A stretch of 64,000 bases of DNA from assembly GCF_053078305.1 (NCBI RefSeq), contig NZ_CP166879.1; one strand, given 5' to 3'. Position 1 is the first letter of the stretch. The number at the start of each line of letters is the position of its first letter. Below the pieces are notes generated by a model. The model saw nothing but the letters and a program-made list of their open reading frames with translations. It searched no databases and was not told the origin of the DNA. The translations under genes were made by a program, and so were the position numbers. Below, piece by piece: positions 55,123 through 61,142 of this stretch.

Positions 55123-55782
55123 TCAGAGATAGTAGGCCGGTACTTTGCGGGTTGTTCCCGTCAGATTATCATGCACCTCCGCGGTCGTTGTCACCACCGG
55201 CATTCCGCTCTTTCTCAACCTCAGGACATCAGCCGCAATACGCTGACTGCCGAACCAGAACAGGCCGTCCAGTGCAGTCACCAGCAACCCCGCCTCCAGC
55301 GCATGCTTCAGCCGTTCACGGGGCGCTTTCACTTCCCGGGCAATCTGCTGGTATGGCGATGATGTGTTATCATTCCCAATCACCCGGCGAATACGATGAG
55401 ACAGATGATACCGGTATGTATCCGGCACACCGGAAAGGCTGGCCTTCAGGCTGTACACGCAGCCAAAGCGTTTATCGTTGAACACCACATTTTTCTGGCT
55501 GATATCCCATTCTTCACGCAGCGCGGCAATCAGTTGTGGTGTCCGGGTAAGCAACAAGCGAAAAGGCAGTTCAAAACTGGTGACGTAATCCACATTCAGC
55601 AGTGCAATACGCAGCCGTTCTTCCGGCCCGGCCTCTGTCTGCCGGCACTCCTCCAGAACATCCTGCCACTGCTGGTGAAGGCGTGGAAGTTCATTCAGTT
55701 CAGTAAAACTGTATTTATCCGCAAGATAGTCAATTCGTGTACGCATACTGAAAAGAATTCCGTATAAAGATTCAGCTGGCAA
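55123..55782 (-). CDS. Hypothetical protein
   Basis: ORF-track start is TTG; the first ATG (MRTRIDYL...) is at about 55746; no motif recognised. Confidence 0.4.
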   Translation of the reverse strand: MPAESLYGILFSMRTRIDYLADKYSFTELNELPRLHQQWQDVLEECRQTEAGPEERLRIALLNVDYVTSFELPFRLLLTRTPQLIAALREEWDISQKNVVFNDKRFGCVYSLKASLSGVPDTYRYHLSHRIRRVIGNDNTSSPYQQIAREVKAPRERLKHALEAGLLVTALDGLFWFGSQRIAADVLRLRKSGMPVVTTTAEVHDNLTGTTRKVPAYYL

Positions 55783-55834
55783 AACTTTATCAGTCTGTAA
55801 AAACTAACGGAAGAGTCGATATTTCTCCCGTCCA

Positions 55835-56344
55835 TCACCGGATGATTGTTGCAATACCCCGTGGCATCAGAGACTGAACAGCCGTTTTTAACGCCACGTA
55901 TTGCCCTGATGAACCAGGCCGGGCAACCCGAAAACATCTTTCCACCCGGCATTGTCCGCCAGCACTTATCACCGACCAGGTCTGTTGCAGTAAATCCACC
56001 AGTTGCGCACATTCTTCATCAGCCATGACGCCGACTCGCGGATGGCAAATACTCGTCTGGCTGAGCAGCAACAGACATCGTATCTGTGCTCCTTCATGTT
56101 GTTCCCGCAACCAGCGTAATACCACCGGCGCTGATGGGCTGACCGTGTGATTATGCTCCGTAATACGTTCGTGTACCCGTCGGTGAAAGGAACTACAAAA
56201 TGTCTGAATCTGTTGACCATAGATTCCTTCTGCCGAATAGAGCGTGAAGTGAAATGCCAACAGATTTGGCCAGTGGTCCACCGCCTGCTGAACAAAACGC
56301 CGGATTTCCCCCGGCTCTGAAATTAAGGCTTCGGTTATTTGCAC
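55835..56344 (-). CDS. Hypothetical protein (169 aa)
   Basis: ORF only; no motif recognised. Confidence 0.4.
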   Translation of the reverse strand: MQITEALISEPGEIRRFVQQAVDHWPNLLAFHFTLYSAEGIYGQQIQTFCSSFHRRVHERITEHNHTVSPSAPVVLRWLREQHEGAQIRCLLLLSQTSICHPRVGVMADEECAQLVDLLQQTWSVISAGGQCRVERCFRVARPGSSGQYVALKTAVQSLMPRGIATIIR

Positions 56345-56789
56345 GAAATGTTCCTTTTCAACCCCTGTTGAATTTTGTCAAGCCGGTGCAGACACAGTAA
56401 AGCGCGCATCAACACCTGAAAGGTACGATACAAACACAAGTTACAAACAATAAGAACGGAAGGACAATTAATCAGTGAGGAATAATAACTAAATTAACCA
56501 AAAGAATGTTACTGACAATACTACCAATACTTAAATAGCAATATATTAATTAATGTAAGAACAGATGCCCGGTAAGACATATACACAATACATCCACAAA
56601 CACACTCTTTTCATTAAATCAATCACCTGATTAAACCATGAAAGTGTGATGTAAGTCAAAATTACTGACACTATCAATTGATAATGATTATCTCTATCAT
56701 TATCGTGAAATTCGAGAATGAAAGGAGAAGTAGTCATTATAAGCCTTTTATAAATCGTCATCATCATAGTAAAGTAGAACACTTTTTAT

Positions 56790-57260
56790 ATGAGTTACTA
56801 TATGAAAATATACTGGACAAGAAAACGCATTCCTGAACTTTCAGCACTTCCACCTTCATTAAGAAAGAAAAATTTTACTGACGCATATAATGCAGCATCT
56901 TCTCATATCGAATACTGGATAGGTGCTGGCGTCTCATTTATCTCGATGATGATTTTATCCAGAGTATATGACTTTCTTTTACCCGCCCAAGATACTTTCC
57001 CGGGTGATATCATCAGAAGTTTATGTGTTGTGTGTCCATCCATATTAATCTGGTTTCAGTTTTCGGTATATGTCATGAGGAAATATTACAGACATATTCT
57101 GGTGCGAGGAAAAGAAACCGAAACCATTTCAGAAAGGTTGATACGTGAGGCTGATACACGAGAATATGAACTATGGCGTCCGGTCCGTCGCTTTTTCTCC
57201 ATTATTTTTCTCATTATTCTATTAGTTTGCATTCATTCACTGATAACAACTATAAAATAA
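56790..57260 (+). CDS. Integral membrane protein of unknown function in the microcin locus (156 aa)
   Basis: Predicted TM segments (VSFISMMILSRVY, LCVVCPSILIWFQFSVYV, FFSIIFLIILLVCIHSLI); AT-rich. Confidence 0.5.
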   Translation: MSYYMKIYWTRKRIPELSALPPSLRKKNFTDAYNAASSHIEYWIGAGVSFISMMILSRVYDFLLPAQDTFPGDIIRSLCVVCPSILIWFQFSVYVMRKYYRHILVRGKETETISERLIREADTREYELWRPVRRFFSIIFLIILLVCIHSLITTIK

Positions 57261-57357
57261 AAGTTATGGCTGTTCTGATACAGGAAAATAAACGTTCATT
57301 CTATGGTTACCTCTTCCTATTATAGAAGAATTTTAAACGACAAGTAAGGGAATATAA

Positions 57358-58044
57358 ATGGAAATAACAAAAAATAAAAATGCAACTATAAAAAAACAGT
57401 CATCAGTCGGCTGCTTTTCAATGTTTACCTTATCATTTTCTATTACCTTTATTCCTGTATTCCTTACAAACAGGCAGGAACTTATATCCAGGGGACTTCT
57501 TGTTCCAGCATTATTTCTTGCTGAATTTCTAATTCTTGTTCCACTGTATTTTATTTTCTTCCGAAAAAGAGAAGGATTAGGAAGAGGCTCTTTTCGACTG
57601 GATGTTTTTTTTACTCTTTTCTCTTTAATAATGATTATTCAGTTATTTGTCCCTTATCTGCTGGCAGTGAGGAAAACGGAAGAATGGATGATCTCGCAAA
57701 TGTCTTTTTCCGGGGCCATTTTATGGATTAATATATTTTCTTCCGTACTTCTTGTTCCTGTATATGAAGAGATTGTATTTCGAGGGTGTCTTTTTAACTC
57801 TTTTAAATTCTGGTTTAATGACAATATTTACATCTCTGCTATTGTAACATCAGTCATATTTTCTGCATTACATCTACAATATACTGACTTTCGTACATTT
57901 TTGATGCTCTTTCTGATATCGTTAGTTCTTATCAGTGCAAAAATAAAGTCGAATGGCCTGTTAATGCCCATATTACTTCACATGGCGATGAATGCAGTCA
58001 TAACAGGAATACAATATACGTTACAATATCACATAACAGTCTGA
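57358..58044 (+). CDS. CPBP-family (CAAX protease / Abi) intramembrane metalloprotease, MceF/McmM-like microcin accessory protein
   Basis: 228 aa; the three CPBP motifs are present (YEEIVFRG, FSALHLQY, LHMAMNAV); polytopic. Confidence 0.8.
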   Translation: MEITKNKNATIKKQSSVGCFSMFTLSFSITFIPVFLTNRQELISRGLLVPALFLAEFLILVPLYFIFFRKREGLGRGSFRLDVFFTLFSLIMIIQLFVPYLLAVRKTEEWMISQMSFSGAILWINIFSSVLLVPVYEEIVFRGCLFNSFKFWFNDNIYISAIVTSVIFSALHLQYTDFRTFLMLFLISLVLISAKIKSNGLLMPILLHMAMNAVITGIQYTLQYHITV

Positions 58045-58489
58045 AATTGTTATTATGAGATATCTATAACACCTGAAGTTGGAAAAAGAAGCAAATAATT
58101 CCTTATAAGGGATCGTTTACTAATATATTTAGATAATCTCATATTTGTTTATGATATACATCTGATTAAGATATAATGGATTATAAATTACTCAAAGATG
58201 AACAAATATCTTCGCCTTTTCTCGTAGAAAGAGACTTGAAACTTATAACACATCTATATAAATGTGATTTAAATCACGGTTTGCAGTAAAAGCAATTGGT
58301 ATAATTCATTGGTATTCCTATTATTTTATCTATTGCGCGAACTATTTTACAACAATAAAAAAGATATACAAACAGCAAGAAGTAAAAATATTCGGATAAA
58401 TAAAAACTTTTGCTACCTTGGTTTCTATAGTCTTTATTTCTAAGTTTTTCATAAGCACTCAAAGACTCATGTATAGGGATGGTTTAATA

Positions 58490-58654
58490 ATGAAACTATT
58501 TTTTTATTTCTCGTTGTTCTTTATAATACAACTTATAAATTCAGACTTAGACACATTAACCCTTTATCTTTTCATAAAGAAAATAATTCTTTCGTTACTT
58601 GCGAGTGTACTGTTTTTATTTGTTTTATCTTTCTTTAATAAAAAGAGGAAATAA
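58490..58654 (+). CDS. Candidate microcin immunity protein (54-aa two-TM peptide)
   Basis: MKLFFYFSLFFIIQLINSDLDTLTLYLFIKKIILSLLASVLFLFVLSFFNKKRK; stop is 1 nt before the microcin precursor ATG; the ORF-track TTG extension was rejected. Confidence 0.55.
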   Translation: MKLFFYFSLFFIIQLINSDLDTLTLYLFIKKIILSLLASVLFLFVLSFFNKKRK

Positions 58655-58655
58655 C

Positions 58656-58979
58656 ATGAGAAATATAACAACCGATGAACTTGCTTTAATACATGGTGCA
58701 GGATTAGATAAAGATGCATCCGTTGCAATAGGTACTGCGGCTGGTAGTTTTTTAGGTAAAGCAACAAAAATCCCTGGTGCGGATATAGCAGGAAGTGCAA
58801 TTGGAGGATATATTGGAGGAGTTATTGCTGATGGTTCAAATAGGACAATAACAATACCATCAAACGGTATTAACTATAATCCGGGTATAGGACTTGGAAG
58901 TTTTAATCCAAACTACAATGGAGGTTTATTAAACTCAGGATTTAACTCATCAACATCCTCTTCTAGTAGTGGAAGTTGA
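58656..58979 (+). CDS. Class IIb (siderophore-type) microcin precursor with double-glycine-type leader
   Basis: 107 aa from ATG at 58656 (RBS AGAGGA, 6-nt spacer); leader MRNITTDELALIHGA-G; Gly/Ala/Ser-rich, Cys-free core; C-terminus NSSTSSSSSGS; export and modification genes adjacent. Confidence 0.8.
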   Translation: MRNITTDELALIHGAGLDKDASVAIGTAAGSFLGKATKIPGADIAGSAIGGYIGGVIADGSNRTITIPSNGINYNPGIGLGSFNPNYNGGLLNSGFNSSTSSSSSGS

Positions 58980-58988
58980 TTAATTTCT

Positions 58989-59025
58989 AAAGCAGCATAG
59001 CTTATTATGCAGCAATGCTGCTTTT
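58989..59025 (+). terminator. Hairpin terminator between the convergent microcin precursor and exporter genes
   Basis: AAAGCAGCAT...ATGCTGCTTT 10-bp stem ending in a T-tract. Confidence 0.45.
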
Positions 59026-59039
59026 AGTGATATATTATC

Positions 59040-61142
59040 CTAATTTGTAATTCTAAAAATCCGATCAACTGTTCTTAAAGTTGTCTCTCTATGTGCAATA
59101 ATCACCCGGGTGATATTCATCTTTTTTATAGCAGCATTCACGAAACGTTCACTTTCTGTATCAAGAGAACTTGTAGCCTCATCCATAAATAATATTCCAG
59201 GTTTCCGGTATAAAGCTCGGGCAATGAATATACGCTGTTTTTGACCGCCGGAAAGACCTTCCCCCAGTTCACCTATTAACGTTTCATACCCCATTGGCAT
59301 TTTCATTATCACATCATGAATATGACTTGCTTTGGCACATTCTGTCATCCATTCGTCGTCTGTTTCTTCTGCAAACCCACAGATATTTTCACGAATTGAT
59401 CCTGAAAATAGCCGGTCGTCCTGCATAACACAGGCTATCATACGGTGATAATTATTTATTCCAAGTTGACGTATATCCGTGCCATTAACCAGTACTTTTC
59501 CACTATCTGGTTCAAACAGTCCACATAATACTTTCATTAATGTGGTTTTTCCGGCACCGGAGGCACCAGTTATAGCCACACTTTCTCCCGGAGCCACAGA
59601 CAAATTCAGACCACTGAATACCTGTGCTGACTGGCTGTCATACCGGTAGCTTAAATCAGTGGTTTCCAGTGAAACCGGGCTCATGTCAGCAACGATTTCA
59701 ATTTCCGGTTTCTTTTCTTCCTTTTCATGTAGTGCAATATCTGCAATGCGCTCATTATGCAGACTCATTATTCTCAGTTGAAGAAGAAAACTGGTCAGCG
59801 AAGCAACCCGATCCGAAAACTGCCCACGAAAAGAACCAAATGCCACAAACATCCCTATTGTCATCTGATTATCGATCACAAGGCTTGCACCCAGCCATAA
59901 AATCGCCACCTGATCACAGGCGGCAACAAAAGTATTTATCCCCCCGAAGAGCAAATCCATCCTGGTTAACTTAATACCTGAATTGATCGCATCTATTTTC
60001 AGGTTAAGCCAGTGTGTTCCCCGAATCCCAGCCATACCCTGGATTTTTACCGTGGCAATACCATACAGGCTTTCCATAAAATAGGAGCTGGCCCGGGCCC
60101 CCCTGACAAGAGTTTCTTCCGATATTTGCCGGTAATAGCCGTATGTCACCAGACGAATAAGAACGTAAACCATGGTAAAACCGAGCACTATCCAGGTAAG
60201 ATATCCTCCATATAACAGCATCATCACAAAAACACCCACAACCATAATACTGTCCATGATTGCCCCAACAACACAGGTAGTAAAGGTGGCCCTCAAAGTG
60301 TCAAGGGAGCCAAAACGCGACTGGATATCACCTAATTTACGGCGTTCAAAAAACGCCAGCGGCAGTCTGAGAAGATGGTTAAACAGACCCGACTGCCACT
60401 GTATATTGATGAGCGTGCTCATAACCAGTGAGGACCATGCACGCAGCATACTCACCGCGGCCCTGAGCAATATAAAGAACATCAGGCCAGCAGAAATAAG
60501 CGTCAGCAGCCCTCTGTCCCCCGCCGGAATCGCATGATCCATAACCAGCTGAGTTCCCACCGGCATTACCAGATTGATTGCTTCAATTACAACTGACAGA
60601 CAGAAAATTTTCGCCAGTGTTCTTTTAATACCGTAAATACTGTTAATCAGTGAACGGAGACTTATGCGGGTCTGCTGGGTTTCCGCCAGGAATTCACTTC
60701 CGGGCCAGACCTCAAGTGCAATGCCCGTAAAATACCGGCTCATTTCCTCCCGACCGAGATATCTTCTGCCTCTGGCCGGATCATGCAGTACATAACGGTT
60801 ACGCTTTACGCTGACCAGCACGACGAAGTGACTGAAATCCCAGTGGAGAATACACGGCATTTTGAGGGCACCAAGTTCATCCAGCTCCAGTGAAAGAGCC
60901 CGGGTGACCATCCCCAGCTGCTCCGCTATTCCATTGATTCCTGCAAGGTTTGCTCCACGGGCCGAGAGATTAAACTTCCGGCGAAGAGATATCAGGTCAA
61001 TATTCTTACCAAAATGACCGCATATCATTGCCAGGCAGGCCAGTCCACATTCAGCGGTCTCCGTCTGATGAATAACCGGAACACGACGTCGCCAGCGCAT
61101 ATCAAGCTGATTTATAATTTGTCTGAAATTCCCGTTAGTCAT
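59040..61142 (-). CDS. Microcin ABC exporter with catalytic C39 peptidase domain (CvaB/MchF-like)
   Basis: About 700 aa from ATG at 61142 ([11 protein letters not shown]...); C39 active-site region [16 protein letters not shown] retains Cys; Walker [10 protein letters not shown], signature LSGGQKQR; closely resembles CvaB from memory. Confidence 0.9.

Follow-up and report, generated by a model that had tools for sequence, protein, structure and literature searches.

A near-identical allele of the class IIb microcin Ec W and its immunity peptide in the microcin M position of an MccH47-type island

Two adjoining genes at positions 58490-58979 of the 64,000-nt stretch of DNA analysed here (the window) encode microcin Ec W and its immunity peptide in a form almost identical to the published one, a pair that is already known and not new. 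We put at roughly 90% the probability that this interval holds the ecwI and ecwA genes of Ec W as a class IIb microcin module, that the module occupies the microcin M slot of an MccH47-type island on the chromosome, and that it acts through the steps proposed below. The features of the module and of its surroundings are collected in Table 1.

Table 1. The ecwI-ecwA module and neighbouring features, in window positions
Feature	Position	Strand	Basis
CPBP/Rce1-like intramembrane protease gene, in the mcmM position of the Ec W paper	57358-58044	+	PF02517 E 2.4e-17; NCBIfam CPBP models
ecwI-ecwA cassette, ~1.04 kb, 29.7% GC, replacing mcmI-mcmA of the classic MccH47/M island	58018-59054	.	blastn
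ecwI, immunity peptide, 54 aa, allele I16/F28	58490-58654	+	ORF and translation
Shine-Dalgarno-like AGAGGA, 6 nt 5' of the ecwA ATG	58644-58649	+	read from sequence
ecwA, microcin Ec W precursor, 107 aa, allele S31, WP_072010583.1	58656-58979	+	ORF, ATG start
ecwA leader, codons 1-15	58656-58700	+	
ecwA core	58701-58976	+	
Hairpin then U-run, between convergent ecwA and mchF	58983-59031	+	terminator-like site 59009-59021 and T-run
mchF, C39-peptidase/ABC exporter	59040-61160	-	TIGR03796 E 6.5e-144; TIGR01193 E 4e-98
mchE, HlyD-family membrane-fusion adaptor	61135-62409	-	TIGR01843 E 1e-29; annotated HlyD family secretion protein
mchD, HlyC-family acyltransferase (MceI-type)	62562-63014	-	PF02794 E 3.3e-11; same position in classic cluster
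mchC, C-terminal 320 codons, continuing past 64000	63040-64000	-	frame open to window edge

Results

Sequence features of the gene pair

A preliminary description of this DNA had placed two open reading frames in the interval, both of which are present, and had read the second as a precursor with a double-glycine-type leader, a Cys-free Gly/Ala/Ser-rich core and a C-terminus of SSSSSGS, all of which the product displays; the CPBP protease, C39 exporter, HlyD adaptor and HlyC-family acyltransferase that it named as neighbours were likewise recognized by Pfam or TIGR models. The EcWA leader (MRNITTDELALIHGA) is 15 residues long, ends in GA and is followed by Gly, and its hydrophobic residues at -4, -7, -12 and -15 together with Glu at -8 form the pattern expected of such leaders. 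The 92-residue core, 8.8 kDa when unmodified, contains 19 Gly, 15 Ser, 9 Ala and no Cys and ends in NSSTSSSSSGS, while its two GxxxG runs, G26-G30-G34 and G46-G50-G54, are compatible with membrane-helix packing. All four sequence features by which Mortzfeld et al. (PMC11634061) recognize class IIb microcins are found here, namely a signal peptide that ends in GG or GA within the first 15 residues, fewer than two cysteines, a Ser-rich C-terminus with a final Ser, and an open reading frame with a membrane segment less than 200 bp away, in this case the 54-aa frame that ends 1 nt upstream of ecwA.

The product of that upstream gene (MKLFFYFSLFFIIQLINSDLDTLTLYLFIKKIILSLLASVLFLFVLSFFNKKRK) has two hydrophobic stretches with a short polar turn between them, the N-terminal one averaging 1.8 and the one near residues 31-48 averaging 2.6 on the Kyte-Doolittle scale over 15 residues, and it ends in NKKRK. 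A single base separates its TAA stop (58652-58654) from the ecwA ATG at 58656, so that the genes abut and, contrary to what had been proposed, do not overlap; the sole reading of ecwA that overlaps ecwI is a mechanical open reading frame begun at an upstream TTG (58599). The hairpin and U-run beyond ecwA are likely an intrinsic terminator, with a predicted RNA fold of -18.8 kcal/mol (z -3.0) that 1 of 200 shuffled sequences matched or bettered. Upstream of ecwI no Fur box rises above chance, the best site matching 12 of 19 positions and most shuffles reaching at least 12. Promoter-like sites occur about as often in shuffled sequence and are not enriched. An Rfam search gave no match anywhere in the 64,000-nt window.

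Other forms of EcWA were encountered in sequence collections. A stop-readthrough version of 114 aa with the tail SGSWLISKAA (P0003; PMC9746304 supplement file 1) was set aside as a likely gene-calling artefact: exactly this tail results if the TGA stop at 58977-58979 is translated as Trp, and the form most likely arose from metagenome-mode Prodigal applying genetic code 4 to low-GC short contigs. An E. coli allele of 103 aa (P0018), found on 13 contigs, carries a 4-residue deletion (one GGYI/YIGG unit, second glycine-rich run).

Identity with microcin Ec W

Ec W (EcWA/EcWI) of E. coli NCTC10444 was reported by Bhattarai, Bucci and Mortzfeld in 2025 (PMC12999681). That paper presents a 107-aa uncharacterised protein whose gene lies, reversed, between mchF and mcmM where microcin M is otherwise encoded. 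The protein has a leader of 15 aa that terminates in GA, lacks cysteines and is serine-rich at its end, and an immunity ORF was found manually upstream across a single-nucleotide gap (NCTC10444 3367763-3367927 and 3367929-3368252). The window differs from NCTC10444 3367763-3368252 at 3 of 490 nucleotides (487/490 identical), producing G31S in EcWA and V16I and L28F in EcWI; the two products are identical to the published EcWA (WP_001390454.1) at 106 of 107 residues and to the published EcWI at 52 of 54. Both loci have genes of 165 and 324 nt, a 1-nt spacer, the slot between the CPBP gene (mcmM) and mchF, and convergence with mchF, and their flanks are 97.2% identical over 9.9 kb. They differ in that the window encodes Ser at EcWA residue 31 (mature residue 16) and Ile and Phe at EcWI residues 16 and 28, and in that its island adjoins a type VI secretion cluster. 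NCTC10444 carries a second island besides that of Ec W, with MccH47, MccI47 and MccM.

According to PMC12999681, heterologous expression of the G31 allele together with the maturation and export genes, on plates limited for iron, causes inhibition of E. coli, Klebsiella, Salmonella, Shigella and some plant-associated Enterobacterales; the same paper demonstrates the immunity function of EcWI, as EcWA-expressing cells grow only with it. The earlier reading of the pair as a class IIb precursor with an upstream immunity gene, possibly a new or poorly characterised family member, is upheld by this published activity under iron limitation and by the need of producers for the 54-aa peptide. Since a near-identical published pair exists, the class IIb call stands and novelty is lost, as the preliminary description had itself allowed in the event of a match to a characterised microcin. 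The published G31 peptide was already an in-silico microcin hit in the 2022 cinful paper (PMC9746304 supplement), and a full-text literature search for the leader sequence returned no paper, the sequence being present only in that supplement. By the account of a 2025 Nature Communications microcin survey, four class IIb microcins that it validated were being tested at the same time by the Ec W/eLife group.

The three allele sites lie at 58746 (EcWA S31), 58535 (EcWI 16) and 58571 (EcWI 28). The exact EcWA of the window is present in the protein collection examined (P0002), and this S31 peptide (WP_072010583.1) is rare, with 7 contigs examined, in comparison with at least 1000 contigs for the G31 peptide (WP_001390454.1). 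The combination of S31 with I16/F28 occurs in no other locus compared, as four loci (L004-L007) pair S31 with V16/L28 and one (L001) pairs G31 with I16/F28. The occurrence of S31 with two immunity alleles, and of I16/F28 also with G31, implies recombination or recurrent mutation.

These distributions bear on whether G31S and the I16/F28 immunity allele make the window's pair a functionally distinct variant, altered in potency, spectrum or cross-immunity, and not a neutral polymorphism. Gly occupies position 31 both in the common allele and in every relative compared (P0019, P0021, P0025 and P0026), the residue adjoins G30 of a GxxxG run, and S31 has been found with both immunity alleles, all of which could be taken as signs of a functional difference. 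Against this, the substitution is a single conservative change within a Gly/Ser/Ala-rich segment, S31 is rare, and the presence of I16/F28 beside G31 means that toxin and immunity alleles are not exclusively paired. We regard a functionally distinct variant as very improbable.

Comparison with other microcins

EcWA was compared with the MccM, MccH47 and MccI47 sequences annotated in the NCTC10444 island (a 4-sequence database). With composition-based statistics no significant similarity to any of the three was found, the best match being MccM at E 0.46, in agreement with the earlier remark that the core is unlike these microcins; the resemblance is confined to leader, tail and composition. Significant similarity of the core to McmA, the mark of the microcin M clade, is likewise absent at this E-value. 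Microcin M (McmA/McmI) shares with Ec W the island slot, the leader type (MRKLSENEIKQISGG), a Ser-rich tail, ending GSGS, and the mchCDEF machinery, but differs in gene orientation, which is opposite, in a cassette that lacks DNA similarity, and in a core alignment of 34% over 109 columns that is obtained without composition correction and falls to the above E-value with it. MccH47, MccI47 and MccE492 have in common with EcWA a 15-aa GG/GA leader, a Cys-poor Gly/Ser-rich peptide, a terminal Ser and the same set of maturation and export genes, whereas the weak matches of MccH47 and MccI47 without composition correction (E 8e-6 and 0.01, respectively, in the 4-sequence database) vanish with it.

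Microcin V (colicin V) is a plasmid-borne class IIa microcin with a C-terminal disulfide, and is not known to carry a serine tail or a siderophore modification. In the cinful analysis (PMC9746304 supplement) the Ec W peptide was matched to MccV across 104 aa at 26.9% identity (E 2.4e-5), a match that suggests a distant relationship for the N-terminal Gly-rich core. Gq W of Gibbsiella quercinecans (Mortzfeld et al. 2024, PMC11634061) is, as PMC12999681 describes it, the closest described relative of Ec W and the founder of the W clade; a 102-aa protein with a class IIb tail (P0038) could be Gq W or a relative of it. A sequence search of the Protein Data Bank returned no microcin chain, only chance matches to beta-propeller repeats at E of at least 0.25.

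The island and its maturation genes

Blastn against the classic NCTC10444 cluster (L003) shows homology only at 55219-58017 and 59055-64000. The first of these blocks is 93.6% identical at the nucleotide level and contains the CPBP gene, which occupies the same position in the classic cluster. The right junction of the intervening cassette falls within the last codons of mchF, where the MchF C-terminus reads DRIFRITN here versus DRIISI in the classic cluster, and the GC content is 29.7% across 58018-59054, 43% in mchCDEF and 48% in the window as a whole. The closest complete genome, NCCP 13963 (L001), is 99.8% identical over 10 kb, and the island order in related genomes is mchA, mchS1, mchS3, mchI, mchB (MccH47), mchC, mchD, mchE and mchF, followed by the convergent ecwA.

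With the RefSeq start, mchF spans 59040-61142 and encodes 700 aa, and near-identical genomes label it 'microcin export peptidase/ABC transporter MchF'. A cysteine near the MchF N-terminus sits at what we take to be the position of the C39 catalytic residue. The mchC fragment, by eye and unscored, reads like the C-terminal part of a 516-aa protein of NCCP 13963, and its position is annotated 'MchC protein' in the classic cluster. We rejected the idea that mchC is truncated in the window; the ORF list shows a 279-aa piece, yet the frame is open to base 64000.

The strain might secrete Ec W unmodified or unmatured owing to defective siderophore-tailoring genes, with a weak, class IIa-like action or a dependence on iroB/iroD. 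The glycosyltransferase gene (the mchA/mcmL equivalent) is annotated as frameshifted in NCCP 13963 (L001 24230-25356), beside an otherwise identical island, indicating that some carriers may be unable to modify class IIb microcins, and the window ends inside mchC, with mchA and mchS1 past base 64000. E. coli Nissle relies on iroB/iroD elsewhere in its genome for MccM and MccH47. The abstract of PMC6776366 deals with the interplay of the Nissle microcins and the colibactin (pks) island, and the 2025 Nature Communications paper remarks that some class IIb microcins stay partly active without modification. On the other side, the glycosyltransferase is intact in NCTC10444 and in two contigs that themselves carry S31 (L004 and L005), where a 374-aa product is called, and within the window mchD, mchE and mchF are complete and the part of mchC that it contains has an uninterrupted frame. 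We consider secretion of an unmodified or unmatured peptide unlikely; this strain may make a modified one. The module is linked to mchF, mchE, mchD and the 3' part of mchC in the window, and mchA and mchS1 are present in related genomes.

Several further features of the window were observed. Just upstream of the CPBP gene, at 56790-57260, a hydrophobic ORF of ~152-156 aa is kept in both classic MccM-type and Ec W-type islands; it is annotated as frameshifted in the Ec W island of NCTC10444 and has no NCBIfam match. A type VI secretion cluster at 26401-53579 adjoins the microcin island, placing two interbacterial weapons side by side, and by the annotation of near-identical genomes it includes TssB/C/K/L/H, Hcp, VgrG, a Tle1-EAEC phospholipase effector, a Tli1 immunity protein and a PAAR protein. 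The region 463-13479 matches an annotated type I secretion system (ABC, TolC-family), an OmpA-family protein, a YadA-like adhesin of ~1450 aa and the TonB-dependent siderophore receptor IreA followed by IS remnants, a pathogenicity-island-like context.

W-type relatives and their tails

Salmonella, Raoultella and metagenomic relatives of EcWA share 61-73% identity with it, and in each case a homologous small membrane ORF immediately precedes the gene. The Salmonella enterica relative (72% identity) is plasmid-borne and directly follows mchCDEF, and that of Raoultella (61%) belongs to a cluster with a glycosyltransferase, an esterase, mchC and mchD; both, like the metagenomic sequences, count among closer relatives that have not been described. 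The small upstream ORFs at three W-type loci (L010, L011 and L012) are homologous to EcWI at 33-35% identity, which supplies independent support for its assignment as the immunity peptide. A profile search of 1.84 billion representatives recovered 18 proteins at E <=1e-3, including hypothetical proteins of Serratia, Pantoea and Mixta.

This conservation also disposes of the notion that ecwI and ecwA are chance ORFs in AT-rich intergenic DNA downstream of mchF. Such a reading could appeal to the low GC content of the cassette, to RefSeq, which labels EcWA "hypothetical protein" and leaves the 54-aa ORF unannotated, and to NCBIfam, which holds no model for EcWA or EcWI, nor for MchC or MchD. Conservation of the protein across genera together with its upstream membrane ORF, the canonical leader, the Shine-Dalgarno sequence and the terminator all speak against it, as do the activity and immunity described in PMC12999681. 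With cross-genus conservation and published experiments in hand, chance origin is already refuted and its probability is next to nil.

In the W-type relatives (L010 8001-8330; L011 4046-4378; L012 8001-8330) core residues ~16-95 are kept and the last ~10-15 residues differ. The Salmonella plasmid gene ends in GPGGGS, which we call a serine tail, the Raoultella gene in SASNGC, with Cys and not Ser last, the metagenome gene in a Cys-rich YSVSDCCDDCRVRCMC, and P0019 in ANAPFRNNR. At L011 3850-4378 an orphan W-like microcin and an immunity-like ORF lie between a tynA-like copper amine oxidase gene and paaZ/paaA-H, and no class IIb maturation or export genes occur within 8 kb of this pair. Comparison of the sequences suggests modular swapping of the uptake tail, with assembly errors as a possible contributor to the differences, and the core/tail pattern is similar to the modular arrangement of toxin and uptake parts that has been put forward for MccH47 and colicin V. 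A bolder version would make the W toxic core a mobile module that is joined to different uptake tails, serine in E. coli and the Salmonella plasmid, Cys-rich in the tynA-paaZ orphan pair and non-serine in other relatives, and the S31/I16/F28 set of the window one step in microcin/immunity diversification; we think this distinctly doubtful.

Discussion

Proposed function of the module

As an allele of Ec W, ecwA would be expressed as a 107-aa precursor whose leader the C39 domain of MchF would cleave after Gly14-Ala15, with MchE and MchF exporting the 92-aa core together with TolC. Before export, MchC and MchD may couple the carboxylate of the C-terminal serine to a glycosylated derivative of linear enterobactin. 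MchA/McmL, a glycosyltransferase, and MchS1/McmK, an esterase, would probably supply this derivative, and their genes lie past the window edge. The catecholate moiety would then allow entry into target Enterobacteriaceae through TonB-dependent catecholate siderophore receptors, after which the core would act at the inner membrane, and the 54-aa membrane peptide EcWI would protect the producer. For leader cleavage, siderophore attachment, receptor route and membrane target this scheme follows the MccE492/H47/M paradigm, as it is generally known and as the introductions of papers present it; the accessible text of PMC12999681 reports neither mass-spectrometric proof that Ec W carries a siderophore, nor receptor dependence, nor a target.

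Distribution and significance

Of 5426 complete E. coli genomes, 116 carry a 741-nt region of the locus at >=99% identity, in all cases on the chromosome, and many of the carriers are, judged from strain names, Shiga-toxin-producing. A tblastn search of 72,556 plasmids (PLSDB) found none that encodes the Ec W peptide, indicating that it is not a plasmid microcin. As a discovery the pair is of small value, having appeared as an in-silico hit in 2022 and undergone functional tests in 2025, and what the window contributes is a single-residue variant of the Ec W toxin and a two-residue variant of its immunity peptide. Its value lies in annotation, as 2% of complete E. coli genomes carry a locus whose toxin is labelled "hypothetical protein" and whose immunity gene is omitted in RefSeq.
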